Below are positions 41,102 through 54,782 of a stretch of 64,000 bases of DNA, piece by piece. This DNA is from Candidatus Campbellbacteria bacterium. GTDB lineage: Bacteria; Patescibacteriota; Minisyncoccia; Phycocordibacterales; EsbW-18. The stretch covers positions 11,940 through 75,939 of the forward strand of contig JANLIT010000002.1 in assembly GCA_024653945.1 (NCBI GenBank), written 5' to 3'. The translations under genes and the position numbers were made by a program. The notes below the pieces were generated by a model that saw nothing but the letters and a program-made list of their open reading frames with translations, did not search any database and had not been told where the DNA came from. The first letter of the stretch is position 1. Each line of letters starts with the position of its first letter.

Positions 41102-41222
41102 AGTGAATAAAAATCGGCCTCGTGGCCTTTGGAGATAATAGCAAAAAGTGAGCGGATGTCAAACCCACTCTTATGATTCGGCGACTTGAGTTAACCTCAG
41201 ATATTTTCCAACTTCTAATTTC

Positions 41223-41242
41223 CCTGCCTGCCGGCAGGCAGG
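41223..41242. repeat. perfect 20-bp GC palindrome CCTGCCTGCCGGCAGGCAGG in the rpsS leader
   Basis: identical to 33805-33824. Confidence 0.6.
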
Positions 41243-41375
41243 CAACCTCCATTATTTTAGACTTTTCCACAGGGGTTGCTTTTTTGTATTGATACGGTAT
41301 AGTGCTTGAGGATGTTATTACGAGCGCACATACCCTATCCGCGGTTCAGCGGGTGGGTTTCTGGAGGAAGTAGCT

Positions 41376-41579
41376 ATGTGCAAGAAGTTTGAAGTGGTGG
41401 AACAAGCCCATCGAGAAAAGCGTAGAATCCGAGTCACTGGGCCTGGAACCAACTTCACCGGCACCGTCGAGAAGGTTAACCCCTCTCTCCTTTCGGCCGA
41501 AATCAGAGGTGAGGGGACTCACACCCACTTCTTCGCTGGCGGAGAAAGCGCCCGCGACTTCACTGTCACGCTGGTCTAG
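41376..41579 (+). CDS. GC-rich small protein (67 aa) within the rpsS-rplB insertion
   Basis: SD GGAGGAAGTAGCT before the ATG; ~60% GC. Confidence 0.4.
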   Translation: MCKKFEVVEQAHREKRRIRVTGPGTNFTGTVEKVNPSLLSAEIRGEGTHTHFFAGGESARDFTVTLV

Positions 41580-41757
41580 CTCCACAGGGCCAGAACCAAG
41601 AACCCCAAAAAGGCGGCAATCCTACAAGGAAGCCGCCTTTACTCATTTCTGAAACATACAGAGTAAGTTTCTTTTTTATATTTAACGTACGGAGTGAACC
41701 CCGCCCTATATACAAACCCCGCCTGCAGTCTTGCGGGCGGGGTTACAACCAAGCAAT

Positions 41758-42150
41758 TCAGTGGACTGTTTCTCCTGACGGGTAAAACATCTTCCAGTAG
41801 TGACGTCCCATACCAGTAATGCAGAAGCATTGAACGAGAGATGTTCTCCCGAAGACTAGCCCAACGAACTCGGGCTGGCGCTGAAGGCTGAACTCCACCA
41901 ACCCATCGGTGCACATTGCCCGAAGTTCGAGCAGTATCTTTTCCTCAGTGGTCACCCTTAGAGCAACCAGTGGGGAGAACGCCCGAACCCTCTTCACCAA
42001 AGACGGGAGGGACATCCAATCGTCGGCAGCAACCAAATGCTTGAGAATTTCCTCTTTGAGAGTCGGGCCACTCTTCTTGCCCCAATCTTCTTCGAGAAGT
42101 TCCAAGGCTCCCCACAACAAGGTCCTTACCCTGTTCCAGTTTGTGGCCAT
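41758..42150 (-). CDS. GC-rich hypothetical protein (130 aa) within the rpsS-rplB insertion
   Basis: SD AAAGGAGACTCGAA before the ATG. Confidence 0.4.
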   Translation of the reverse strand: MATNWNRVRTLLWGALELLEEDWGKKSGPTLKEEILKHLVAADDWMSLPSLVKRVRAFSPLVALRVTTEEKILLELRAMCTDGLVEFSLQRQPEFVGLVFGRTSLVQCFCITGMGRHYWKMFYPSGETVH

Positions 42151-42279
42151 TTCGAGTCTCCTTTTTCTGGTTTAGTCTCGATAATCAAATCTGATAAAAA
42201 TGTAGCCGAAAATAAAGTCACTGTCAAGTTTTGTTGAACATCTGTTGACAATCTTTCAACAACAAACTATACTCATTTC

Positions 42280-43062
42280 ATGTCCCCTACTACAAAACTC
42301 CGTGAACTCGGACTCAATAACAAAGAAATCACTGTGTATCTCGCCTTACTCAAACACGGCCGACGAACACCTGCCGCACTCTCACAACTTACAAAGATAA
42401 ACCGTGCGACGGTATACAGTGTTGCAAGAAATCTACAATCAAAGGGTCTTATTGCTGAGGATATCAGCGGTCATTCTCGTTTCTTTCTACCCCTTCCTCC
42501 CAACAATTTGAATCAACTTATTGATCGCCCAAAACGTGAGCTACAAGAAAAGGAAGATCTTGTTCGCAACACCATTGAAGAGTTATACCAACTCGCTTCA
42601 GAACATGAATATCCTGTTCCAAAAATTCGTTTTGTCCAGGAAGGCGATCTCGAAGATTTTTTGTTTGGTAATACAGTGAGATGGGAGAAGAGTGCTCTGG
42701 AACAAGACGGAACATGGTGGGGCTTTCAAGACCATAGTTTTGTGGAGGTGTATGAAAAGTGGATTCACTGGTCGTGGACAACACTTGAGGGAAAGGATGT
42801 GCGTCACCGCGCAAAAATCATAACGAACACATCGGAAATTGAAAAAAGGTTGCAGCCAAAATATTCAAGAGAAAAGCGCGACATGAGATTTCTCCCTGGA
42901 GAAAAGTTCATGTCCACGATGTGGGTCGTCGGCGAATACGTTATTATGATTGCAACCAAACATCACCCGTTTTATCTCGTCGAGATTCATGATGTGTTAC
43001 TTGCGCACAACATGCGAGAAATGTTTAAAAAACTTTGGGGGCAAACTCGCGAAATTACCTAA
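42280..43062 (+). CDS. TrmB-family winged-helix transcriptional regulator
   Basis: N-terminal HTH LGLNNKEITVYLALLKHGRRTPAALSQLTKINRATVYSVARNLQSKGLI plus a ~170-aa C-terminal domain. Confidence 0.65.
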   Translation: MSPTTKLRELGLNNKEITVYLALLKHGRRTPAALSQLTKINRATVYSVARNLQSKGLIAEDISGHSRFFLPLPPNNLNQLIDRPKRELQEKEDLVRNTIEELYQLASEHEYPVPKIRFVQEGDLEDFLFGNTVRWEKSALEQDGTWWGFQDHSFVEVYEKWIHWSWTTLEGKDVRHRAKIITNTSEIEKRLQPKYSREKRDMRFLPGEKFMSTMWVVGEYVIMIATKHHPFYLVEIHDVLLAHNMREMFKKLWGQTREIT

Positions 43063-43101
43063 CACTAAAACACCTGCGGATATACCGCAGGTGTTTTAGT
43101 G

Positions 43102-43944
43102 TTATTTTTTCTTGCCGACGCGACGTCGTGTGACGATGAGGAAGTTTGAGTACTTCTTTGGCTTGCGTGTCTTGTGTCCCTTTCCGACGTTCTTTCCGTG
43201 TCGTGTGCGCGCTCGGCGGTGTCCACGTCCCTGACGGCCTTCTCCTCCTCCGTGTGGGTGGTCTACTGGGTTCATCGCTGTTCCACGTACCTTTGGTTTC
43301 TTTCCGAGCCATCGATTGCGTCCTGCCTTTCCGAGATTAACGAGTTTATTTTCTGGATTTGAAACTTCTCCGACTGATGCCCATGCGTTTTCAGATACTT
43401 TGCGGGTCTCCGTTGATGGCATTTTCAAAAGTGTATAGCCACCATCATGAGCAATCACTTCAGCAAATACTCCAGCACTTCGTGCAATCTTTGCCCCATC
43501 GTTTGGCTTTCCTTCAATGTTGTACACGAACGTACCAACAGGAATCTTTGCGAGTGGAAGTCGGTTTCCAGGAGTAACGGGTGCTTTTTCAGACGCGAGG
43601 AATGTTGCTCCAACTTTGAGCGACTGTGGTGCAAGAATGTATCGGCGTTCACCATCTGCATAGCAAATAAGTGCAATAAATCCTGAACGGTTTGGATCGT
43701 ACTCAATTGTTTCAACACGTGCAGGAATATCTTTTTTGTTGTATACAAAATCAACATCACGGAATGCTCGTTTGTGACCAGCACCGATACTGATTGTGGT
43801 ACGTCGCCCAAACGCATTGTGTCCAAAACTGCGTCGGAATCCTTTCGTGAGCGCCTTGTGTGGTTTTCCGGCAATCAAAAGCTTGCGGTATTCAATACCG
43901 GTCATTCCACGGCGTCCTGCACTTGTTGGTTTATAGTGTTTCAT
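43102..43944 (-). CDS. rplB: 50S ribosomal protein L2
   Basis: 280 aa; ..GNVLPL..IP.GT.VHNIE..PGKGA. Confidence 0.9.
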   Translation of the reverse strand: MKHYKPTSAGRRGMTGIEYRKLLIAGKPHKALTKGFRRSFGHNAFGRRTTISIGAGHKRAFRDVDFVYNKKDIPARVETIEYDPNRSGFIALICYADGERRYILAPQSLKVGATFLASEKAPVTPGNRLPLAKIPVGTFVYNIEGKPNDGAKIARSAGVFAEVIAHDGGYTLLKMPSTETRKVSENAWASVGEVSNPENKLVNLGKAGRNRWLGKKPKVRGTAMNPVDHPHGGGEGRQGRGHRRARTRHGKNVGKGHKTRKPKKYSNFLIVTRRRVGKKK

Positions 43945-44664: not shown

Positions 44665-45423
44665 CTACTGTTTCTTTTCAACCCACCGTTTTACGGCTTC
44701 ATCTGGATTAACCACAATGAGGTATGTGTATGTCATTGCGTCAACGGCATTGAGATTGCGAACCTCTTCAACGGCAACATTTCCTAGGTTTCTAAAGCTT
44801 TTCTTTACCATCTCGTCTGCTGTTGTTGTAAGAATGAGCGCTGCGTTTTGCTTTTTACCAATCATTTTTTCAAAACCTGCAATCTTTGAAAATACACCGA
44901 GAATATCTTTGGCTTCTGCTGTTTTTGGTGTACCAAATGTAATTGAGTCAACAAAGAGAATTTCTTTATCCTTAAGTTTGCGTGAGAGGACGCTGAAAAG
45001 AGCTGATGCGCGCATCTTTTTAGGAATCGTCACACTGTAATCCTTGTCTGAACGTGGGCCGTGAGTCACACCTCCTCCCTTCCATAATGGAGAGCGGATT
45101 GAACCGTGACGTGCGCGTCCTGTTCCTTTTTGTCGCCATGGCTTTTTGCCTCCACCACGAACTTCACCGCGACCTTTTGTGTGAGCACCTGCACGACCTG
45201 CGCGTGCATTGTTCTGCATGCCGAGTACCACTTGGTGCACGAGGTCTGCGTTCCAATTCACACCAAAAATCTGCCCCGGAAGTGTAACGGTGCTTACCTC
45301 TTTTCCTTTGATATCAAAAATAGGAGCTTTCAAATCCTTGCCGTCTTTTGCAACAACAACCTTCTTTGGTTTGAGTGCCTTAGTTGTTTTTACTGTTTTC
45401 TTTTGTGCTGGTTTTTTTTCCAT
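44665..45423 (-). CDS. rplD: 50S ribosomal protein L4, with N-terminal extension
   Basis: 252 aa L4/L1e family. Confidence 0.9.
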   Translation of the reverse strand: MEKKPAQKKTVKTTKALKPKKVVVAKDGKDLKAPIFDIKGKEVSTVTLPGQIFGVNWNADLVHQVVLGMQNNARAGRAGAHTKGRGEVRGGGKKPWRQKGTGRARHGSIRSPLWKGGGVTHGPRSDKDYSVTIPKKMRASALFSVLSRKLKDKEILFVDSITFGTPKTAEAKDILGVFSKIAGFEKMIGKKQNAALILTTTADEMVKKSFRNLGNVAVEEVRNLNAVDAMTYTYLIVVNPDEAVKRWVEKKQ

Positions 45424-45464: not shown

Positions 45465-46103
45465 TTAGCTTCCCATCACTTCAACAACGGTACCACGTCG
45501 TCCTGGGACTGCTCCGGAAATAAAAATCTGTCCGTTTGCAACGTCAACGAGAAGAACCTTGAGGTTTTTAACCGTGATTCGGTCTCCACCCATACGTCCA
45601 CCCATACGACGTCCTTTCATAACACGCTGAACTCCACCAGCTCCGATTGAACCTGGCTCACGCTCAGAGTGTTTCTGTCCGTGTGTTCGGCGACCTCCTT
45701 TGAAACCGTGTCGCTTCACCACACCCTGAAAACCTTTTGATTTGGATGTACCTGAAACGGTCACTGTGTCGCCAGGAGTAAACACACCCGCATCAATCAT
45801 AGTCCCGAGTGGGAGTTCTGCAGGATCAGAAACCGGAAATTCCATAAATCCCGCAAACATACCCTTTGACTTTTGTGCGTTGTTCACATTTTTTTCTTTT
45901 CGTACGTCATACCCAACCTGCACAGCAGTGTACCCGTCAATATCTTTTGTTTTGATTTGTGTGACAACGGCAGGAGAAACACGAATAAGCGTTGCTGGGT
46001 GCACAACACCGTTGTCATCAAAGACTTGTGTCATTTCTTGTTTTGTTCCGACGAGAAATTTCATGAATTTGTTTTGAATACGAGTGAGCCCTGGCTCGGA
46101 CAC
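45465..46103 (-). CDS. rplC: 50S ribosomal protein L3
   Basis: ..KQEMTQVFDDNG...ATLIRVSPAVVTQIKT; 212 aa. Confidence 0.9.
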   Translation of the reverse strand: MSEPGLTRIQNKFMKFLVGTKQEMTQVFDDNGVVHPATLIRVSPAVVTQIKTKDIDGYTAVQVGYDVRKEKNVNNAQKSKGMFAGFMEFPVSDPAELPLGTMIDAGVFTPGDTVTVSGTSKSKGFQGVVKRHGFKGGRRTHGQKHSEREPGSIGAGGVQRVMKGRRMGGRMGGDRITVKNLKVLLVDVANGQIFISGAVPGRRGTVVEVMGS

Positions 46104-46297
46104 ATCCGAGCTAGGGCTCTAGTGTCCAGAGGTTCCTGTGGGAACATGGCGCATACGTGGGGACTACTATACACGACCACCTTTCAGAGTGCAAGTTCTC
46201 AGTGATAAAATACTTGACAAACATACTTTTCGTAGTACCATACACACCAGAACCTGACCGAAATGAATTCGGCAGAATTGACCTTTGGGAGGATGGG

Positions 46298-46603
46298 ATG
46301 ACGAAAAAACTCAACGGAAGGTTCATGGTGTTGCAGATGCGCCTAAACAAACTGCTCTTCGAGCAGATCAAGCTTAACGCTAGAGTTGCCACGTACGAGA
46401 CACAGAAGGCAACGGTGCGAGGAGAAATCAACTTCCTATTGCGTAGCCAGGGAGCGAGGACTATCTTGGGTGAAAGGGTCTATGCACTGATTGAGTCAAA
46501 CCACGCCGATGCATCTCAACGGGCCAGCGCAAACAATCTCGAAATCATGGGAATCATGATCGAGATGAACAAAGAGATTCCCGCACCCGATTCGAAACTC
46601 TGA
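46298..46603 (+). CDS. small hypothetical protein (~101 aa), cassette gene 1 between rplC and rpsJ
   Basis: SD GGGAGGATGGG before the ATG; followed by terminator cgaccagctagtacagctggtcgttttttt (46613-46650). Confidence 0.45.
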   Translation: MTKKLNGRFMVLQMRLNKLLFEQIKLNARVATYETQKATVRGEINFLLRSQGARTILGERVYALIESNHADASQRASANNLEIMGIMIEMNKEIPAPDSKL

Positions 46604-46767
46604 TGTCCACAACAACGCCTCGACCAGCTAGTACAGCTGGTCGTTTTTTTATCCAGCACTTAAAGTTAAGTGCTGGATTTATTCCGATTTGATTTTTGAT
46701 TGACAAGACACACCACAAAGAATATTGTTGCCCCAGAAATGTATCCCAACTCCAGAAAGGAGCGCGT

Positions 46768-47085
46768 ATGAAATTTGCCATCGCCATAGGTCCAAAAGGT
46801 GGTGGACCTCACAAAGGCTTCATCGCTGAATCTGAGGAAAACATCAAAATACGAACCGCACGTCTTCGAGAACATGGATTCACCATCGTTCCTATCAACG
46901 TTTCCCTTCTACCGTCTGACACTGAGGTCGCAAAGATGTTTGCGGAGAGTCAAATTCACCGGTCTATCGACCCAACTACCACCGAACTCTTTGAGGCCGT
47001 CATGAACTTGGGAATCAAGATTGGCTGGAAAGCTAGGGGACAAGACATCGTCTCCCACATCAGTGGTTGTTGTCGAAAAAAGTAA
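46768..47085 (+). CDS. small hypothetical protein (~105 aa), cassette gene 2; paralogous context to gene 3
   Basis: sigma70-like promoter TTGACA-17-TATTGT (about 46692-46720), SD AGGAGCGCGT, terminator cacgaccagcccaccagctggtcgtttttg (47107-47140). Confidence 0.5.
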   Translation: MKFAIAIGPKGGGPHKGFIAESEENIKIRTARLREHGFTIVPINVSLLPSDTEVAKMFAESQIHRSIDPTTTELFEAVMNLGIKIGWKARGQDIVSHISGCCRKK

Positions 47086-47210
47086 CTTCAACCAAACACG
47101 CTCTCACGACCAGCCCACCAGCTGGTCGTTTTTGTTTTATTGACAAAACAGACCATGAAGAATAGTGTTACCCCAGAATCAATCACGCGTTCCACATAAG
47201 GAGAAAAGTT

Positions 47211-47510
47211 ATGAAGCTCGGCGTCGTACTTCGCTCTGATGGTACAGTTTTCGGAGACATCATGTCTCCAACCGCGGAAGGCTTCGGCAACGCAATGGCT
47301 CGTGTACCAGATGGATTCATGGTCATTGAGGTCTCCGTCGACCTCGATCCAGAACAAGCTTCTGCGGTTCAGAAGCTTGGAAACAACGAGCTCTCAATGG
47401 AAGAGCTCCGACGCATAAGCCATTTGATCCGTCTCGGAATTCAGATGGGAATTGAGGTTCAGAAAGTACTCGCCATCTTCCGCATCCATGATGGCCGTCG
47501 AAAAAAGTAG
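47211..47510 (+). CDS. small hypothetical protein (99 aa), cassette gene 3
   Basis: promoter TTGACAAAACAGACCATGAAGAATAGTGTT, SD AAGGAGAAAAGTT, near-identical terminator (47527-47560). Confidence 0.5.
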   Translation: MKLGVVLRSDGTVFGDIMSPTAEGFGNAMARVPDGFMVIEVSVDLDPEQASAVQKLGNNELSMEELRRISHLIRLGIQMGIEVQKVLAIFRIHDGRRKK

Positions 47511-47639
47511 CGACCGCCGGATGTACCCCACGACCAGCCCACCAGCTGGTCGTTTTTGTCTTAAAACATACGGAGCGAGCCCTAAAGGATTGCTGTTTGT
47601 AGTCAATCACTTCGTTCTTGAACAAACAGGGAACCTCTA

Positions 47640-47758
47640 TTTTTTGAATTTTTTTGTATTTAACATACGAAGTGAGCCTATTACAACAAAGAAACTCTCG
47701 GAGCCCGATGAGGGTGAGAGTGAGTGCGTTTTCAGTAGAAAACGACACGTGTTCTTTG
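47640..47758 (+). repeat. dispersed ~100-nt element (candidate small RNA / cassette-border repeat): ..tttaacatacgaagtgagcc..aaactctcggagcccgatgagggtgagagtgagtgcgttttcagtagaaaacgacacgtg
   Basis: homologous copies at 51588-51700 (opposite strand), 53340-53400 (3' part) and 41670-41712 (5' part). Confidence 0.55.
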
Positions 47759-47780
47759 TTGTAAGTAGGTGAGCGGAGAG

Positions 47781-48149
47781 CTACATCATTTTCACTTCAA
47801 TGTTTACTCCGGATGGGAGTGAAAGAGATGTGAGAGATTCAATAACTTTTGGGGTTGGGTTGAGAATATCAAGTACTCGTTTGTGCACACGCATTTCAAA
47901 TTGTTCTCGTGCATCTTTGTCAATGAATGCTGCACGGTTGACAGTAAAGAGTGAGCGTTCGGTAGGAAGAGGAATTGGACCAACAACAACAGCTTCATAT
48001 TTTACAGCGGTATCCATAATCTGCTTTACGGATTCATCAAGAAGTTTACTTTCATACGCACGAATACGGATGCGCAACTTGTGTGGCGCCTCATCGTGCA
48101 CTTTCTCTTTCTTTGTCTTTCGTGTTGTTTTTGGTTTCAAGGTACTCAT
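47781..48149 (-). CDS. rpsJ: 30S ribosomal protein S10
   Basis: ..KLRIRIRAYESKLLDESVKQIMDTA...VVGPIPLPT. Confidence 0.9.
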   Translation of the reverse strand: MSTLKPKTTRKTKKEKVHDEAPHKLRIRIRAYESKLLDESVKQIMDTAVKYEAVVVGPIPLPTERSLFTVNRAAFIDKDAREQFEMRVHKRVLDILNPTPKVIESLTSLSLPSGVNIEVKMM

Positions 48150-48314
48150 ACGCTACGCGGGGACACTGTATCCCATTGTTTGCCCTTTGTCCAGAACGCA
48201 TTCTAGAGCCCTCAGATACGAGGCGCGAGCGAGGATTCGACTGAGCGATATTGCAATATCGTGAAGAAGAACCGGAGCTCGCAACAAAGTAGATGAGGGC
48301 TATCGAATGCGTTC

Positions 48315-49517
48315 TTACGCTACGATTTTTGTAACCACACCAGCTCCAACAGTCTTACCTCCCTCTCGGATAGCAAAGCGCTGTTGTGCTTCAAGCGCGA
48401 TTGGTGCTGTAAGTTTTACTTTGAATGTAACGGTGTCTCCAGGCATAACCATCTGCACTCCTTCGTTAAGCGTCACTTCTCCCGTCACATCCGTTGTGCG
48501 GATGTAGAACTGAGGCTTGTATCCAGAGATAAATGGTGTGTGGCGACCACCTTCTTCCTTTGTGAGGATGAGCACTTCTGCTTCAAATTCTGTGTGAGGT
48601 GTCACACTACCAGGAGCTGAGATAACTTGTCCGCGCGTAACATCTTCTTTCTTCAAACCACGGATGAGAATACCTGCATTGTCTCCTGCTATACCAGAAT
48701 CAAGTGACTTGTTGAACATTTCAATTCCTGTCACTGTTGATTTTTGTGTTGGCGTAAGACCGACAACTTCAATATCCTGACCAACCTTAATTGTTCCTCG
48801 TTCAATACGGCCGGTTACTACAGTACCGCGTCCTTCAATTGAGAAGATGTCTTCAACTGGCATAAGGAACGGCTTGTCAACTTCACGAACAGGTTCAGGA
48901 ATGTATGAGTCCAGAGTGTTGACGAGTTCAAAGACGCCCTTTGCCCATTCATCATCCATAGATGTTGCAGCAAGCGCTTTTAATCCAGAACCACGAATCA
49001 CTGGTGTCTCTTTTCCGTCAAATCCGTACTTCGTGAGCATTTCGCGTACTTCCTCTTCAACGAGGTCAACAAGGTCCTTGTCAGACACCATGTCAACTTT
49101 GTTCAAGAAAACAATCATTTTTGGAACTCCAACCTGTTTTGCAAGGAGAATGTGTTCTCGTGTTTGTGGCATTGCTCCATCTGAAGCGGCGACAACGAGA
49201 ATTGCGCCGTCCATTTGAGCAGCACCGGTAATCATGTTCTTGATGTAGTCGGCGTGTCCAGGAGCATCAATGTGCGCGTAGTGGCGAAGTGGTGTCCAGT
49301 ACTCGGAGTGGTGGAGCGCAATAGTAATACCGCGTGCCTTTTCTTCCGGTGCACTGTCAATTTTATCAATTGCTTCAACGCGAGCGCCGTATCCCTTGTC
49401 CTTGTTCATGTCCAAGATTTTGAGGATTGCTGCGGTGAGCGTAGTCTTGCCGTGGTCAACGTGTCCGATGGTACCGACGTTAACGTGAGGCTTTGAACGG
49501 TCAAATGTTTCTGCCAT
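48315..49517 (-). CDS. tuf: elongation factor Tu
   Basis: [22 protein letters not shown]; 400 aa. Confidence 0.95.
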
Positions 49518-49630
49518 AAATTTGTTGATTATTAAAAATAACTATTGTTTGTAATGGTTTTGTGCCCCACACGAGGATGCACATGCTGAGAACAAAAACA
49601 CGCGTAGCGCGCATTTTGTAAGGCGTTGCC

Positions 49631-49659
49631 ATTGTACACAACCATTTTGATATCGTCAA
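49631..49659 (-). promoter_or_regulatory. sigma70-type promoter for tuf: TTGACG-17 nt-TACAAT (minus strand), ~105-nt leader
   Basis: read on the reverse complement: ttgacgatatcaaaatggttgtgtacaatggc. Confidence 0.55.
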
Positions 49660-49769
49660 TCCCGTTGCCGCTCTTTACGTGCAAAACTGTGGAGAAACTG
49701 TGGATTAAAAACAAAACGAGCCCGTTCTCCAAAGCGTGCGCATGCACACAATGAAGGAACGGACTCTGC

Positions 49770-49976
49770 TCAAAGAACGACATCCTGTGTCTCATCGGAA
49801 TGGAACTCGGGCACATCTTCCGAGCGCACGCCGTAATCCAACCACGTATCGTGCGTCTCGAGGTATGACGCGCACCACCTCAAGAAAAGCTTTGTGCTGA
49901 TTCCTGCCACCACCATACATCCGATGGTGATGAGGAACGGCATGGGTGAAATGTCTGGCGGAAGCGGGAGGCTCAT
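49770..49976 (-). CDS. GC-rich small membrane protein (68 aa)
   Basis: SD GAGGTGA before the ATG; 10 nt after the upstream gene's stop. Confidence 0.4.
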   Translation of the reverse strand: MSLPLPPDISPMPFLITIGCMVVAGISTKLFLRWCASYLETHDTWLDYGVRSEDVPEFHSDETQDVVL

Positions 49977-49985
49977 GTTGTCACC

Positions 49986-50519
49986 TCACTTCGTGTTGTG
50001 CAGAGGCATTGATGTCGGTGTGGGAAGAAGTGCGGCGGACACTGGCACCCACGACTCCCGCGCCTTCGTCTCCGAGAGCGCGCGAATGAATTCTGGGGAG
50101 AAGGCGAAGGTGTCGTCATCAGCCTCGTGGCACATGAACCGTGTCTCAAAGGCCAAAATGTCAAAACCACGTTGTGCTTCGAGACGCATTTTTCGAGAAT
50201 CCTCAATCAACGTCTCCAGAAGTACGCGCTCGAAACTCTCCCAGGGACTCTTCGTGCCACTCAGCATTTTCTCCAAAAAGAAGTTGACACAGACAACGCT
50301 GTACTCAACCTCGATGTGAGAATGCTTGTGCTCTCGAAAATGCGTACGGATGATATCGGGAATGTGCTTCCGAATATCATCCGTCGACGGGCGAGGTGCC
50401 TGCACGCTCTTCTGCCAGGCGGCGTCACGTTCAGAGGTGCTTGTGATAAGTCCTCTGACAAGAAGTGCACAAAAAGCCACGATGAGAGTCATGATAAGTA
50501 AAGCGAGCGAGAACGGCAT
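49986..50519 (-). CDS. GC-rich membrane-anchored protein (177 aa)
   Basis: N-terminal TM helix, SD GAAAGGGG, promoter-like TTGACA-18-TATTAT upstream (about 50580-50615). Confidence 0.5.
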   Translation of the reverse strand: MPFSLALLIMTLIVAFCALLVRGLITSTSERDAAWQKSVQAPRPSTDDIRKHIPDIIRTHFREHKHSHIEVEYSVVCVNFFLEKMLSGTKSPWESFERVLLETLIEDSRKMRLEAQRGFDILAFETRFMCHEADDDTFAFSPEFIRALSETKARESWVPVSAALLPTPTSMPLHNTK

Positions 50520-50639
50520 GGTGGACCCCTTTCCAGAGAGTTGCGACGTTTAGCGTGAACACAGGTTATTTTCCGAGGTCAATAATACACCAAAGTATAC
50601 ATCTTTGTCAATCCCATTCTTTTGTATCCTGTGGATACG

Positions 50640-50680
50640 CAAAAGCCCCGCCGACTCGTGGTCGGCGGGGCTTTTTAAGC
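50640..50680. terminator. bidirectional terminator aaaagccccgccgactcgtggtcggcggggcttttta
   Basis: hairpin plus T-run. Confidence 0.6.
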
Positions 50681-50704
50681 TTTTGAATCTAGTGTTTCTT
50701 CAGA

Positions 50705-51403
50705 CTAGTCGTGCTTCATCTCGTGTCCAAGGTGCTCAAGGTAACGACCTGCTGCGCTCTGACCGCCGAGGCCGAATGCCAAACCGAAGGCGAGTGAGAG
50801 AGCAATCACTACTCCTGTAAAGAGTGTCTGCAAGAATGCAACACCAATACCGAGTTGTGAAAGTGAAACCAAGAGAGCAAAAATCCAGATTGCCCACTTT
50901 GAAAGTGTGCCGAGGAATCCTGCTGATGCGATGTTTGCGGCCTTTGCTGATGCAACAACAATTCTACGAACCGCTTCAGCAAGTACAACCGACACAAGCA
51001 TGATGAGAACTGCAACAATCACCTGTGGCAAGTATCCCAACACAACATCTCGTAAGAAAGCAGTTACCTGTGTGAGATTCACGATTTCAAGTGATGCAAT
51101 CAAGAAGACAACGATAATGAACCATCGTACAAGCTCCCCAATGAATTTTCCTGAGTTGAGTGAGAAACCTGCTCGTGCAAGTGTTTGTTCCAAGCCAGCA
51201 CCACGAAGTGCGCTGTCCAACTTAATTGACTTAAGAATCTGTTCTACCGCACGCGCAAGAAGCGATGCAATAATCCAACCGATGATAAAAATAATGAGCG
51301 CAACAAGAAGTTTTGGCAGGAATGCAATGACTCCTCCCCACACTGTTGCAAGTGATGTTGCGACAGTGACACCTGTTGTCTGAAGAACTGTGGTTCCTAA
51401 CAT
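50705..51403 (-). CDS. membrane protein built of repeated TM-helix units (TM-helix-repeat / mechanosensitive-channel-like)
   Basis: 232 aa, about 6 TM segments with recurring LxxLxxVxxxL pattern. Confidence 0.5.
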   Translation of the reverse strand: MLGTTVLQTTGVTVATSLATVWGGVIAFLPKLLVALIIFIIGWIIASLLARAVEQILKSIKLDSALRGAGLEQTLARAGFSLNSGKFIGELVRWFIIVVFLIASLEIVNLTQVTAFLRDVVLGYLPQVIVAVLIMLVSVVLAEAVRRIVVASAKAANIASAGFLGTLSKWAIWIFALLVSLSQLGIGVAFLQTLFTGVVIALSLAFGLAFGLGGQSAAGRYLEHLGHEMKHD

Positions 51404-51587
51404 AGTATTGTTAAATTAATTTAAATTATACGTAATAATCAGTTTTTAATGATTTTCAGGATGTGTGCCTGAACACCGTGCCACAAGGGCAGTTTTTCGA
51501 CTTTTAATGTCTTTAATGATAGCACCGCAAGGAATGTCCTTTAATGCCCCTGTGGACAACTCTACGCTCGCCCCGCCCTTCCACAAA

Positions 51588-51700
51588 CACGTGTCGTTTT
51601 CTGCTGAAAACGCACTCACTCTCGCCCTCACGGGCTCCGAGAGTTTTGTGTATAGGGCGGGGCTCGTTCCGTACCACGAATTTTTGTTGCTACAAAAATT
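51588..51700 (-). repeat. dispersed ~100-nt element, copy 2 (orientation opposite to 47640-47758)
   Basis: cgtgtcgttttctgctgaaaacgcactcactctcgccctcacgggctccgagagttttgtgtatagggcggggctcgttccgtaccacg. Confidence 0.55.
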
Positions 51701-51819
51701 CTGTAAAAAGAAAACAATTGACAGATACTGTTTTCAGGCGTACGTTTGCGACAGAACATACGCAGGTTAACGCATGTATCCTCTTGAGCCTTGGCTAGGA
51801 GGAAGAAAGGGTCCATCCA

Positions 51820-52494
51820 ATGAACGCTGGAGAACTGAAGGTATTGGTGGGAAAGTGTTTCGGACAATTTTTCCTCAAAATCTGGACATCCGTGGCTTTG
51901 GTGGCCATCGGCACGGTCATACTCGGCATCGAACTTTTCGTACGTGAGAGTGGGCCGAATCTTTTTCTTTTCCTTATCGGGGTAATACTCATCGTTTGGG
52001 GGCTTGCTCTCTCGATACGGTTCACCAACAAGCTGAGGGGGCTCCGACGGACCCTGGCCGAGTACGAGGAGGCGTGGCGCACACGGATGTGGACGGGAGG
52101 AAATCTCGGTCTTGTGATTTCTTCTCTCGTGGAAAACCGTCTGGTGGATATGTGGCAGCGGGGCGTCTTTGCCGAAGAGCTGGTTAAGACACTTGGTGTC
52201 GGCCCATACCAAGTGGATGCTCTTTTCGAGGTGCCGTTCACGAATGGGGACATTCGCGATGAAGAGGTTGATTTACAGACCGGGTTGGGATGGCTACTCC
52301 ACGGTAAGTATCTCGTTCCGGCGGAGCACGGCTTTGGGGCGTTCGTCTGGTCGGACACGAAGGTGTACGAGAAATTCTTCGCACTTCCAGAGAATAGGAT
52401 GCGCGACGACTTCGACCCGAACAAGGAACCCGAGCTTCTCGACGCCGTGCGCGATGGCCGTGTTTCACTCCCCGGTGGTGTAAAAATCACCTAA
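51820..52494 (+). CDS. GC-rich membrane-anchored hypothetical protein (224 aa)
   Basis: 2 N-terminal TM helices; AGGAGG upstream; terminator cccgag..ctcggg after the stop, plus palindromic ggaagccaggcttcc hairpins. Confidence 0.5.
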   Translation: MNAGELKVLVGKCFGQFFLKIWTSVALVAIGTVILGIELFVRESGPNLFLFLIGVILIVWGLALSIRFTNKLRGLRRTLAEYEEAWRTRMWTGGNLGLVISSLVENRLVDMWQRGVFAEELVKTLGVGPYQVDALFEVPFTNGDIRDEEVDLQTGLGWLLHGKYLVPAEHGFGAFVWSDTKVYEKFFALPENRMRDDFDPNKEPELLDAVRDGRVSLPGGVKIT

Positions 52495-52597
52495 ACTGCA
52501 CTGCTCTTTTCACGAAGAACCCGAGTTCGCTCACGCGACCTCGGGCTTTCTTTTTGGAAGCCAGGCTTCCCCGTTGGAAGCCTGGCTTCCAAAAATG

Positions 52598-53152
52598 CTA
52601 CAACCCCAATTTATTCACTAATTTTCGATGCGGATAGTCAAACACATCGCGCAGGAGTTTGTCATTCATGCTCGTGCGGTAGGAAAAATCTTTTGTTGAA
52701 AATGCAGAGTAGCGAATGTCAGTTCCGCATTCCGCTTCAAGTTGTGTGATTGCTTTTGCTAATGCTTTATCATCAATTCTATCGGCAATAACAAGCACAT
52801 CCGTTCGTGAATCTTCTTCTTCAATAAAAATACCAGACACAACAAGTAATTTGAGTGCACCACATTTTGAAACACGTGACACCACAGGTACATCTGCAAG
52901 CATGTTGCCGAGCATGAGGTGTTTCACACTCATCATGTGTGGAAATTCTGGGTTGAGTAACCATCCACGTGCGCGTTTTTTAAGAAAGCCTGCTGACTTC
53001 AAACGCGCGAGTGGTGTCTTGAGCGACGATGATACAATACTTGTTTTTTCAGCAAGCGTTGCTGTCCCGTAGATACCTTCTGGGTGAAACAGAAAAAAAC
53101 GCATCAGTCGAACCGGCGCACTTCCTCCAAATAATTTTGCGAGTAGATCCAT
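52598..53152 (-). CDS. hypothetical protein, possible winged-helix regulator
   Basis: 184 aa; weak HTH-like segment; low confidence on function. Confidence 0.35.
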   Translation of the reverse strand: MDLLAKLFGGSAPVRLMRFFLFHPEGIYGTATLAEKTSIVSSSLKTPLARLKSAGFLKKRARGWLLNPEFPHMMSVKHLMLGNMLADVPVVSRVSKCGALKLLVVSGIFIEEEDSRTDVLVIADRIDDKALAKAITQLEAECGTDIRYSAFSTKDFSYRTSMNDKLLRDVFDYPHRKLVNKLGL

Positions 53153-53319
53153 CCCGATAGTGTTATATGCCGAATAATATGTAGAACCTTACAATACTCT
53201 TTTCTATTAAAATACCATGATACACGGGTCACTGAAAAAACTATCGGGATCCATACAAGAGTTAGTATACCCTCCTTTTAAAACAAAAACACCCCTTTTG
53301 GGGGTGTTTTTATGCACTT

Positions 53320-53645
53320 TTGTGCTGAAAAAGATTACTTCAAAGTTACATGTCACGCGTCGTTTTCTATTGAAAACGCGCTCGGAGCCTCCTTCGGCAC
53401 AACCTACTGGTTGCCCACCTCAATGAGTACATTGTTATAACCAAGTTACAAATCTACTAATTTGCCTACTGGGTCGCACCGTCGTGCTCCGTCTCAAAGT
53501 GACTCTATTTGAGAGTCACTTTGCCACGAGTTTCTAGCTTCCTCATTGTGCTTCGCACAATTCCGTCGCAAGAACTCTCGGCCCCGTCTCGGTGCTCTCT
53601 CCTGCTTACGCAGGCGCACCTGCGACCGAAAAGTAACTTTGAAAT
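53320..53645 (-). ncRNA. candidate structured non-coding region (~300 nt, ~52% GC) between the rplL stop and an intrinsic terminator (53290-53318)
   Basis: several perfect hairpins (aaagtgactct-attt-gagagtcacttt; gcagg-tgcg-cctgc), bounded by inverted repeats ttacttcaaagttac / gtaactttgaa; contains the 3' module of the dispersed element (cgcgttttcaatagaaaacgacgcg). Confidence 0.25.
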
Positions 53646-54140
53646 TTATTTTAAAGTTACCTTTCCGCCGGCTTCCTCAATCTTCTTCTTCATAACCTCT
53701 GCATCTTCTTTCTTCACTGCCTCCTTGATAACGCCAGGTGCGCCATCAACGAGATCCTTTGCTTCCTTGAGACCAAGACCTGAAACTTCCTTCACAGCCT
53801 TGATAACAGCAATCTTGTTCTCCCCAACTGATGTAAGTTCAACAGTGTACTCGCTCTTTTCATCTGCACCTGCTGCACCTGCTGCAGGAGCTGCTGCGAC
53901 AGCAACTGCTGACACCCCAAACTTTTCCTCAAACACCTTCACGAGTCGGTTCAAATCCAACACGCTCATTTGTTCAATTGCGTCAATAATTTTCTTGAAC
54001 TCGGCTGGAATTGCTACATCCGCAGTTTTCTCTACTGTCTTTGCAACTGGCTTGTCCGCCACAGCTGGGGTTGTTGTTTCCTCTACTGGCTTGTCCGCCG
54101 TAGCATCTGCGGAGGCGGAAGTTTTTGTTTGTTCATCCAT
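53646..54140 (-). CDS. rplL: 50S ribosomal protein L7/L12, with ~35-aa N-terminal extension
   Basis: ..[70 protein letters not shown]; ATG at 54140. Confidence 0.85.
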
Positions 54141-54281
54141 ATGTATTAGGTTAAATTCGAAATTCAAATATCGAAATCCGAGACAATATCTCATTTTCTA
54201 AATCAAAATGTTTTAAACATTTGTACATTAGAATTTTGAATTTGTTTCGTGTTTCGTACTTCGATTTTCGTGCTTATAGTA
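54141..54281. repeat. ~130-bp r-protein leader repeat upstream of rplL
   Basis: ttaaattcgaaattcaaatatcgaaatccgagacaatatctcattttctaaatcaaaatgttttaaacatttgtacattagaattttgaatttgtttcgtgtttcgtacttcgattttcgtgcttat. Confidence 0.6.
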
Positions 54282-54782
54282 TTATTTCTTTTCTGCAATG
54301 GCACCAAGCGCAATAACCAATCGTTGAATTGGCGAGTTAATGACGTTGGCAAACATTCCACGCAATACTGTTTGTGAAGGAATTGTTGCAATCTCAAGCA
54401 TGCGCTCGCGATTCAAAAATTCACCATCAAAAATACCACCGAGAATACCGAGGTGTCCTTCAAATTTTTTCTGGAACGTGTAGATGTTTCGCGCTGGTGC
54501 TGTTGTATCAACTGCGTCTGCACTTTGTGGATATGCGATTGCTACCTCACCATCAAGCGCAGGAATATCTCCCTTTGCTTTTGAACTTGTGAGTGCTTTC
54601 TTGATGAGTGTCTTTTTTGCAACAGTGTATCCAACGTCATTTGCTTTCAACTCTTTTCGAATTTCCATAGCATCACGCACCGTGAGACCGTGGAAGTTAA
54701 CAAAAACAGCCGAGGGAACACGCTTAATGATGTCCTGAAGCTTTTCAAGAATTGTTTCTTTTTGCTTTCGTGTAATTGGCAT
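54282..54782 (-). CDS. rplJ: 50S ribosomal protein L10
   Basis: 166 aa L10 family. Confidence 0.9.
   Translation of the reverse strand: MPITRKQKETILEKLQDIIKRVPSAVFVNFHGLTVRDAMEIRKELKANDVGYTVAKKTLIKKALTSSKAKGDIPALDGEVAIAYPQSADAVDTTAPARNIYTFQKKFEGHLGILGGIFDGEFLNRERMLEIATIPSQTVLRGMFANVINSPIQRLVIALGAIAEKK

Follow-up and report, generated by a model that had tools for sequence, protein, structure and literature searches.

No bacterial gene cluster is more conserved than the S10 ribosomal-protein cluster, within which rpsJ and rplC usually lie a few bases apart. In the 64,000-nucleotide (nt) stretch of a Candidatus Campbellbacteria genome analysed here (contig JANLIT010000002.1, positions 11,940 to 75,939; hereafter the window), the gap between these two genes reaches 1.7 kb and holds an array of three small genes on the strand opposite to both. 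What are these genes, how did they come to be there, and does their location tie them to the ribosome? The explanation that we consider probable is that the array consists of lineage-specific accessory genes lodged in a recurrent insertion hot spot and expanded by local duplication. The array shows that, in ultra-small bacteria of the Candidate Phyla Radiation (CPR), even the S10 cluster is fragmented and has accessory genes settled in it, and it carries a warning: a place 'inside the ribosomal operon' is not evidence of a ribosome-related function.

A sequence-only reading of the window had proposed three separate promoter-gene-terminator units opposite rplC and rpsJ, a proposal borne out by their anatomy. 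Each open reading frame (ORF) follows a promoter and a Shine-Dalgarno (SD) sequence and precedes a terminator:

46214-46241, plus strand: unit 1 promoter, TTGACA-16-TACCAT (consensus scan, 10/12 positions)
46298-46603, plus strand: ORF1, 101 amino acids (aa); SD GGGAGG at 46287-46292, 5 nt before the ATG
46621-46650, plus strand: terminator 1, CGACCAGCT-AGTAC-AGCTGGTCG then T7 (hairpin 46621-46643)
46651-46678: 13-bp perfect inverted repeat ATCCAGCACTTAA/TTAAGTGCTGGAT, just upstream of unit 2
46700-46728, plus strand: unit 2 promoter, TTGACA-17-TATTGT (consensus scan, 10/12 positions)
46768-47085, plus strand: ORF2, 105 aa; SD AAGGAG at 46757-46762
47106-47134, plus strand: terminator 2, ACGACCAGC-CCACCA-GCTGGTCGT then T5 (hairpin 47106-47129)
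47140-47168, plus strand: unit 3 promoter, TTGACA-17-TAGTGT, twin of the unit 2 promoter
47211-47510, plus strand: ORF3, 99 aa; SD AAGGAG at 47198-47203
47530-47558, plus strand: terminator 3, then T5 (hairpin 47530-47553)

The interval first assigned to the array, 46104-47780, does contain it; the part from 46104 to about 46194 belongs to the leader and promoter of rplC, and 47560-47780 is a structured spacer. Sigma-70-type promoters are predicted by consensus match upstream of all three ORFs. The form originally given for them, TTGACA-17-TAttgT, suits unit 2 and its twin in unit 3, while unit 1 departs from it with a 16-nt spacer and a TACCAT box. Unit 3 combines a perfect -35 with a weak -10, TAGTGT, which agrees with the consensus at 3 of 6 positions; this is why its promoter is absent from the consensus-scan list, and its -10 is proposed here by analogy with the twin in unit 2. 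At three plus-strand sites, beginning 18-21 nt past the stop codons of the ORFs, we found the features of intrinsic terminators: 9-bp stems with 6 GC pairs, loops of 5-6 nt and runs of T5-T7. The T-run of terminator 2 abuts the -35 of unit 3.

That the three terminators are near-identical was correctly seen. Their stems are the same in all three units and are found nowhere else in the window, where GACCAGC..GCTGGTC occurs three times, always within the array, against 0 occurrences in 100 shuffles. A 30-nt promoter pattern is present twice, in units 2 and 3, with 0 expected. Between these two units, identity reaches 84% over 44 nt of promoter, 76% over 34 nt at the end of the coding sequence and 97% over 35 nt of terminator. 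Repetition on this scale is well beyond chance. The array would be expressed as three monocistronic mRNAs of about 400 nt, each starting at a sigma-70-type promoter and closed by an intrinsic terminator; since every unit ends in this way, plus-strand transcription should stop before rpsJ.

Are the ORFs genuine genes? The sequence-only reading had made its proposal depend on whether relatives conserve the ORFs as coding sequences together with their promoters and terminators, and for ORF3 both hold. ORF3 has coding homologs on two other metagenomic contigs, each accompanied by a TTGACA box and an intrinsic terminator; one of the two contigs has enough flank to judge its surroundings, and it comes from a closely related genome (L001). 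The homolog on L001, P0006, is 62% identical to ORF3 and lies in the same ribosomal-protein cluster, between rplC and rpsJ and on the opposite strand, as a single unit whose terminator differs in sequence. The two genomes are 94-96% identical in the S10, L3 and L2 proteins, with synonymous divergence (dS) of ~0.6-1.0. Between ORF3 and P0006, nonsynonymous divergence (dN) is 0.35, dS is saturated and dN/dS is ~0.09, so the protein is under purifying selection and the gene is real, even if the pair evolves 3-10x faster than its ribosomal neighbours (dN 0.35 vs 0.03-0.12). The second homolog, P0007, is 44% identical and forms a stand-alone unit on a 637-nt groundwater contig, next to a gene different from the neighbour of ORF3 and P0006.

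ORF2 belongs to the same family. Its identity to ORF3 is ~20%, with a BLASTP match at E=0.004; a profile built without ORF2 ranks it first of 833 six-frame segments of the window (E=0.003), and it retains the conserved positions of the ORF3 family. By these comparisons ORF2 is a divergent paralog of ORF3, as had been suspected, and ORF3 appears as the best-conserved member. The C-terminal ..RKK likeness cited at first in favour of this kinship is indeed shared by ORF2 and ORF3; it falls inside the stretch of DNA that is similar between units 2 and 3, and its absence from P0006 and P0007 means that it is not a family motif. Among ~15 billion proteins the family comprises four members (ORF3, ORF2, P0006 and P0007): the family profile, run with HMMER in full against 1.84 billion representatives, returned only P0006 and P0007 besides ORF2 and ORF3, and word-indexed searches agree on this membership. 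Neither ORF1 nor ORF2 has a homolog beyond this genome in 5.8 billion clusters. ORF1 was also considered as a third paralog: it has a (L/M)GI.(M/I) motif in common with ORF2, as well as 13 matching nucleotides about equally far from the terminator in the two units; BLASTP and profile searches gave nothing, and the resemblance, weak and non-significant, is left as a hint. The ORF3 protein family is new, and the array is of an ordinary kind, orphan accessory genes in a variable hot spot; with its three proteins, the already large stock of CPR hypothetical proteins gains one more tiny, unclassified family.

The isolation of ORF1 and ORF2 raises the alternative that one or both are decaying or spurious products of duplication or rearrangement, leaving ORF3 as the only working gene. 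Their codon-usage scores of +0.11 and +0.14 bits per codon are low next to +0.30 for ORF3 and 0.3-0.48 for ribosomal proteins, ORF2 and ORF3 show dN ~0.9 and dN/dS ~1.3 on a weak alignment, and the neighbouring spacer resembles rearranged repeat material. Yet both are intact frames of more than 100 codons with a good SD at 5 nt, a strong -35/-10 pair and an intact terminator. The annotated frame is the best of six for both, as it is for ORF3, negative scores go to the long ORFs that run antisense across the array, and ORF2 has kept the positions conserved in its family. We therefore regard partial loss of function as very unlikely. ORF1-3 are predicted to be genuine monocistronic genes for small, soluble and probably cytoplasmic proteins of a very narrow Campbellbacteria lineage.

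The next question is whether these genes lie inside an operon at all. The relevant neighbours are:

44665-45423, minus strand: rplD
45465-46064, minus strand: rplC (ribosomal protein uL3), left neighbour (ORF list)
46065-46194, minus strand: rplC promoter and leader; -35 TTGCAC at 46194-46189, 17-nt spacer, -10 TATAGT at 46171-46166
47781-48149, minus strand: rpsJ (ribosomal protein uS10), right neighbour, convergent with the array (ORF list, NCBI match)
48315-49517, minus strand: tuf

The gene order on the minus strand is tuf, rpsJ, rplC, rplD, rplW, and the array genes diverge from rplC and converge on rpsJ. To describe them as standing within the ribosomal superoperon, as was done at first, is misleading: rplC has its own conserved promoter and leader and so starts its own transcription unit, which places the three small genes between two units rather than inside one. 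In S10 neighbourhoods fetched from 80 related species for leader and gap comparisons, a TTGCA-17/18-T(G)TATAGT promoter precedes rplC in 14 loci, and a core hairpin, C(C/U)AUGUYCC...GGRACCNNUGG, follows it in 13 sequences, namely the window and 12 fetched loci including L001. The leader of the window is 95% identical to that of L001, although nearby synonymous sites are near saturation (dS about 0.9).

Nor is the position of the array highly unusual, as had been claimed; for this lineage the claim was overstated. In 76 relatives with rpsJ and rplC on one contig, the gap between the two is below 200 nt in 47 and spans 424-3910 nt in 19, so that a quarter of them carry 0.4-3.9 kb of cargo at this junction. 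Nine loci share at least 76% S10 identity with the window, and seven of these have a gap of at least 313 nt. The cargo is unrelated from genome to genome:

L062: HicB
L068: HicB and HicA
L079: a ribbon-helix-helix (RHH) protein and a YafQ-like protein, a RelE-like pair (the YafQ-like member below the Pfam cut-off)
L009: DDE transposase
L038: sugar transferase
L046: NUDIX protein
L020: DUF4395 protein
L003, the closest genome-collection relative: an antisense 215-aa ORF with a hydrophobic, signal-peptide-like N-terminus

No relative of ORF1-3 is encoded in the fetched neighbourhoods with such cargo. The rpsJ-rplC junction is thus a recurrent insertion hot spot in Paceibacteria and an old operon break. 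As the same gap holds varied accessory genes in relatives, the array is a local oddity rather than a new regulatory device. The gap would lie between a tuf-rpsJ unit, which ends at 47781, and a unit running from rplC and rplD onward with its own promoter and leader (46194-46065). Such a junction may act as a permissive site where unrelated accessory genes come and go, tolerated because it is already an operon boundary.

The nature of some of this cargo suggests a different motive for the presence of the array: its genes could be selfish or conflict elements, that is, toxins, antitoxins, immunity or anti-defence factors maintained by addiction or arms-race selection. HicAB proteins (L062, L068), the RHH/YafQ-like pair (L079) and the DDE transposase (L009) occupy the same junction elsewhere, the ORF3 family evolves fast relative to its ribosomal neighbours, its tandem paralogs have drifted to ~20% identity and its distribution is extremely narrow. 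The resemblance to type II toxin-antitoxin (TA) modules such as HicAB or RelBE/YafQ-DinJ extends to the ~100-aa size of the proteins. It fails in the architecture of the array, which is made of three monocistronic units with a hairpin and T-run between ORFs and contains no co-transcribed pair, whether adjacent or overlapping; the gene of L001 is single and has no partner. The proteins also share no sequence or fold similarity with toxin or antitoxin families. An addiction or immunity role, raised in the sequence-only reading together with a regulatory one, thus finds no support in homology or fold; the idea would draw only on the rapid evolution of the family and on an analogy with the TA modules that other genomes carry at this junction. 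We judge it rather unlikely.

Searches for function gave little more. ORF1-3 have no significant match in Pfam-A, NCBIfam, PHROGs or PADLOC, any matches falling below curated cut-offs or hitting designed helical proteins, and the PDB sequence search matched only designed repeat proteins. No hydrophobic segment in ORF1-3 is long enough for a transmembrane helix. AlphaFold models ORF1 as a two-helix antiparallel hairpin, with a predicted local distance difference test (pLDDT) of 88.5 for the best model and 47-68 for the other four; the family model of ORF3 is beta-beta-alpha-beta-alpha plus a long C-terminal helix (pLDDT 71). Fold searches with these models returned generic helical matches only, those of ORF1 being to generic coiled coils at E >=0.2. 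IMG/VR contains no relative of the ORF3 family or of ORF1, GenBank phages none of ORF3, and with nothing in PHROGs either, a phage or plasmid-like origin was set aside. The terminator stem was likewise considered as the signature of a mobile element: CGACCAGC-N3-9-GCTGGTCGTTTTT has 54 matches in metagenome contigs, with no protein or DNA similarity to the locus, and these are unrelated terminators of other organisms. The GC content of the array shows no anomaly.

If not selfish, could the array be regulatory? Its transcription or its proteins might modulate the expression of rplC or rpsJ through promoter competition with rplC, collision with read-through from rpsJ, or binding to the rplC leader. 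The -35 boxes of unit 1 and rplC stand 20 bp apart, so that the two promoters are back to back, and a family gene sits beside the rplC promoter and leader in two genomes. In the window, rpsJ is followed by no canonical minus-strand terminator, which makes antisense overlap possible, and ORF1 and ORF2 are basic proteins, with isoelectric points of 9.9 and 9.3. Against this, the genes point away from rplC toward rpsJ and each is ended by a strong terminator: they cannot transcribe into rplC, and the convergent transcription into that gene once suggested for them does not apply to this arrangement. Eleven other species keep the rplC leader without a relative of ORF1-3 in the fetched neighbourhood, P0007 adjoins a different gene, and cargo at the junction is unrelated between genomes. 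The isoelectric point varies between 5.4 and 9.7 within the family and so is not conserved, and only the two copies of the window have the RKK tail. The only routes by which a regulatory link could arise are antisense read-through from the strong tuf-rpsJ unit and competition between the unit 1 and rplC promoters, and we hold such a role to be unlikely.

A more ambitious version would make the break itself a functional platform, in which the rplC attenuator sets ribosomal-protein output and the small genes are expressed inversely to ribosome synthesis, by promoter competition or rpsJ read-through. Were this most unlikely scheme true, the ORF3 family and ORF1 would be factors linked to the state of the ribosome or of growth, for example hibernation-like or leader-binding proteins, confined to a handful of ultra-small bacteria. 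In a related scheme, the terminator hairpins common to the units and a repeated element described below would mark a hairpin-targeted shuffling of gene units into the ribosomal-protein cluster.

Several observations weigh against accessory genes at a hot spot as the full account of the locus. The promoters and terminators of the array are consensus matches only. ORF1 and ORF2 score below ribosomal proteins in codon usage and have no outside homologs, so their coding status rests on codon frame, SD and flanking signals. The lack of a canonical terminator for rpsJ would allow antisense read-through across the array, and with it some regulatory coupling. That a family gene stands beside the rplC promoter in two genomes may be due to function and not to shared ancestry. 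Finally, units 2 and 3 match each other in patches at their 3' ends, with 13 nt conserved, 20 nt diverged and 35 nt conserved, a pattern that fits selection on the elements at least as well as gene conversion. We nevertheless prefer the accessory-gene explanation, under which the proteins would be dispensable accessory factors rather than regulators of ribosomal-protein genes.

How would such an array have formed? L001 has one family gene where the window has two plus ORF1. Upstream of its single gene, L001 has inverted-repeat arms, CCAGCACTTAAA / TTTAAGTGCTGG, the same as those at 46651-46678; their presence before unit 2 and before the L001 gene indicates that unit 2 occupies the ancestral position, with ORF1 placed between it and rplC. 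The spacer of the rplC promoter in the window resembles that of the outgroup L003, which points to the promoter region of L001 as the rearranged one. By dN, ORF3 stands nearer to the L001 gene (0.35) than to ORF2 (~0.9). At 84-97% identity, however, units 2 and 3 are far more alike in promoter and terminator than neutral sites are between the window and L001. Near-identical flanks around ~20%-identical proteins make these two units mosaics, which arose either by recent copying or conversion of regulatory modules between old paralogs or by very fast evolution of ORF2 after a recent duplication. The terminator of ORF1 has the same stem as those of units 2 and 3 and a different loop. The array probably grew by local duplication. 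As to the order of events, an ancestral single family gene, as in L001, would have been duplicated into units 2 and 3; ORF1, an unrelated gene, would have been added beside the rplC promoter; and, as the coding parts drifted apart, promoter and terminator modules would have been copied from unit to unit or homogenised.

Two known types of gene assembly help to place the array. Like integron cassette arrays, it strings together short ORFs in tandem, each followed by a similar hairpin-forming sequence. Integron cassettes are promoterless ORFs whose attC sites are imperfect palindromes of 55-140 nt with a GTTRRRY core, whereas every ORF of the array has its own TTGACA-type promoter, and its hairpins, 23-24 nt long, are followed by a T-run but by no GTTRRRY core; they are classical intrinsic terminators, not attC sites. 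No integrase is evident adjoining the array, considering its neighbours rplC and rpsJ only. The closer parallel is with accessory-gene islets at conserved hot spots, where fixed flanking genes, here rpsJ and rplC, enclose variable content (TA modules, transposase, enzymes, orphans) and where copy number varies, as with the one unit of L001 and the three of the window. The junction differs from such islets in its site, within an otherwise highly conserved S10 ribosomal-protein cluster, and in its borders, where neither an integrase nor a tRNA nor an attachment-site repeat was identified.

The ribosomal-protein cluster of the window is broken a second time, between rplB and rpsS (41102-43101):

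41162-41135, minus strand: rpsS promoter, TTGACA-16-TATTAT
41376-41579, plus strand: 67-aa ORF
41758-42150, minus strand: divergent 130-aa ORF
42280-43062, plus strand: TrmB-family regulator (PF01978, E = 3e-13)
43060-43104, plus strand: hairpin with a 20-bp stem, then a T-run, at the rplB end of the gap

The TrmB-family gene and the 130-aa ORF have TTGACA promoters by scan, and for all three ORFs of this gap a promoter or terminator is visible in the sequence. With self-contained genes at this break too, promoter-gene-terminator units appear as the ordinary gene format of this genome. L001 carries different content in the same gap.

The leader of rplC, the hot spot and the repeated structured element are more useful by-products of this analysis than the array itself: further work should turn first to the leader and the hot-spot pattern, and the leader and the repeated element are more novel than the array. 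The rplC gene is 96% identical to an L001 gene that matches Pfam Ribosomal_L3, and its likely start is the ATG at 46064 rather than the upstream GTG at 46103. Its 5' leader is ~95 nt long, with the core hairpin CCAUGUUCC..GGAACCUCUGG at 46149-46126 and a fold z-score of -4.2. A regular expression for the core has 12 matches in 1.8 Mb, all 47-235 nt upstream of rplC and on its strand, and a covariance model recovers the same set and nothing else at E <0.01. By both methods the leader occurs upstream of rplC only, and only where the rpsJ-rplC gap exceeds 300 nt. In the core, 93.9% of cells pair, vs 22-54% when partners are slid, and four pairs change on both sides. A variable hairpin lies between the promoter and the core; in most sequences the core is followed by another hairpin and a U-run, though the copies of L001, L003 and the window lack the U-run. 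The leader is unmatched in Rfam 15, both in the window (E up to 5) and in the 12 loci (gathering score). The leader loci, in coordinates of each fetched neighbourhood, include:

L001: 6715-6850
L003: 4458-4498
L009: 8281-8330
L015: 9801-9853
L020: 7416-7467
L023: 6725-6776
L029: 7340-7383
L040: 8134-8186
L043: 6780-6831
L046: 10149-10188
L050: 6511-6570

We thus find upstream of rplC what characterises a ribosomal-protein leader, a conserved structured 5' untranslated region with covariation, and we propose it as a candidate ribosomal-protein leader or attenuator in at least 12 Paceibacteria species. Like the E. coli S10 leader, in which L4 mediates attenuation, it is a structured 5' untranslated region ahead of rplC-rplD, and in most relatives it ends with a hairpin and U-run as an attenuator would. 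It differs from that and other autogenous leaders in being located upstream of rplC instead of rpsJ and in having no similarity in Rfam. A leader peptide starting at the invariant AUG of the leader was rejected: the frame of L009 ends after 4 codons, and there is no conservation among the peptides. In the literature searched we found no description of CPR ribosomal-protein operon breaks or of a Patescibacteria ribosomal leader. By eye, the promoter-proximal region of rpsJ (48150-48200, minus strand; TACAGT-GTCCCCGCGTAGCGTATG) resembles that of rplC (46140-46175, minus strand; TATAGT-AGTCCCCACGTATGCGCC); the GTCCCC stretch upstream of rpsJ is absent in L001.

On the other side of the array, the spacer between terminator 3 and the stop codon of rpsJ is strongly structured (fold z-score -5.4) and contains one copy of the repeated element:

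47560-47780: structured spacer
about 47597-47655, plus strand: hairpin, then a T-run
47676-47768: element A, the main hairpin of the spacer
51571-51664: element B, in opposite orientation to A
53354-53383: partial element C, downstream of rplL, 30 nt matching A
41687-41700, 46081-46093, 47568-47581 and 47665-47678, plus strand, and 51661-51674, minus strand: motif TACGRRRYGAGCC

A 62-nt core of element A is 95% identical to 51586-51646 in element B. Both elements adopt the same two-hairpin fold, and their closing stems are entirely different in sequence and pair in each. Element A has no match in Rfam and is absent from 82 related loci. Elements A, B and C look like a family of extragenic palindromes of the repetitive extragenic palindromic (REP) type, or may represent a small RNA. 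Motif TACGRRRYGAGCC is always directly 5' of a hairpin and precedes both A and B; allowing two mismatches it has 6 matches, against 1.3 expected. On the other strand it corresponds to the 3' end of the rplC leader, between the leader hairpin and the start codon.

Three further interpretations of the spacer were tried and rejected. As a duplicated rplC junction it is weak, its best 26-nt alignment being reached by 3/500 and 3/300 shuffles (~1%); a plus-strand copy of the leader core is not significant (31/300 shuffles); and a hammerhead-like core in element A depends on a 'GAUGA' in a loop that differs in copy B, with nothing in Rfam. Within 47560-47780 the terminator scan found no canonical minus-strand terminator for rpsJ, whereas L001 has a clean bidirectional terminator after rpsJ.

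ORF1-3, S10 and EF-Tu are exact matches to the NCBI proteins MCR4274568-72 on a 238-kb contig, where ORF1-3 are already annotated as hypothetical proteins (MCR4274568-70). The genes usually found upstream of tuf, rpsL-rpsG-fusA, are not seen there (49530-53500); the region has instead membrane-protein-like ORFs at 49986-50519, 50705-51403 and 51820-52494, with rplL and rplJ beyond them at 53646-54782, so that gene order around the translation genes looks generally rearranged.

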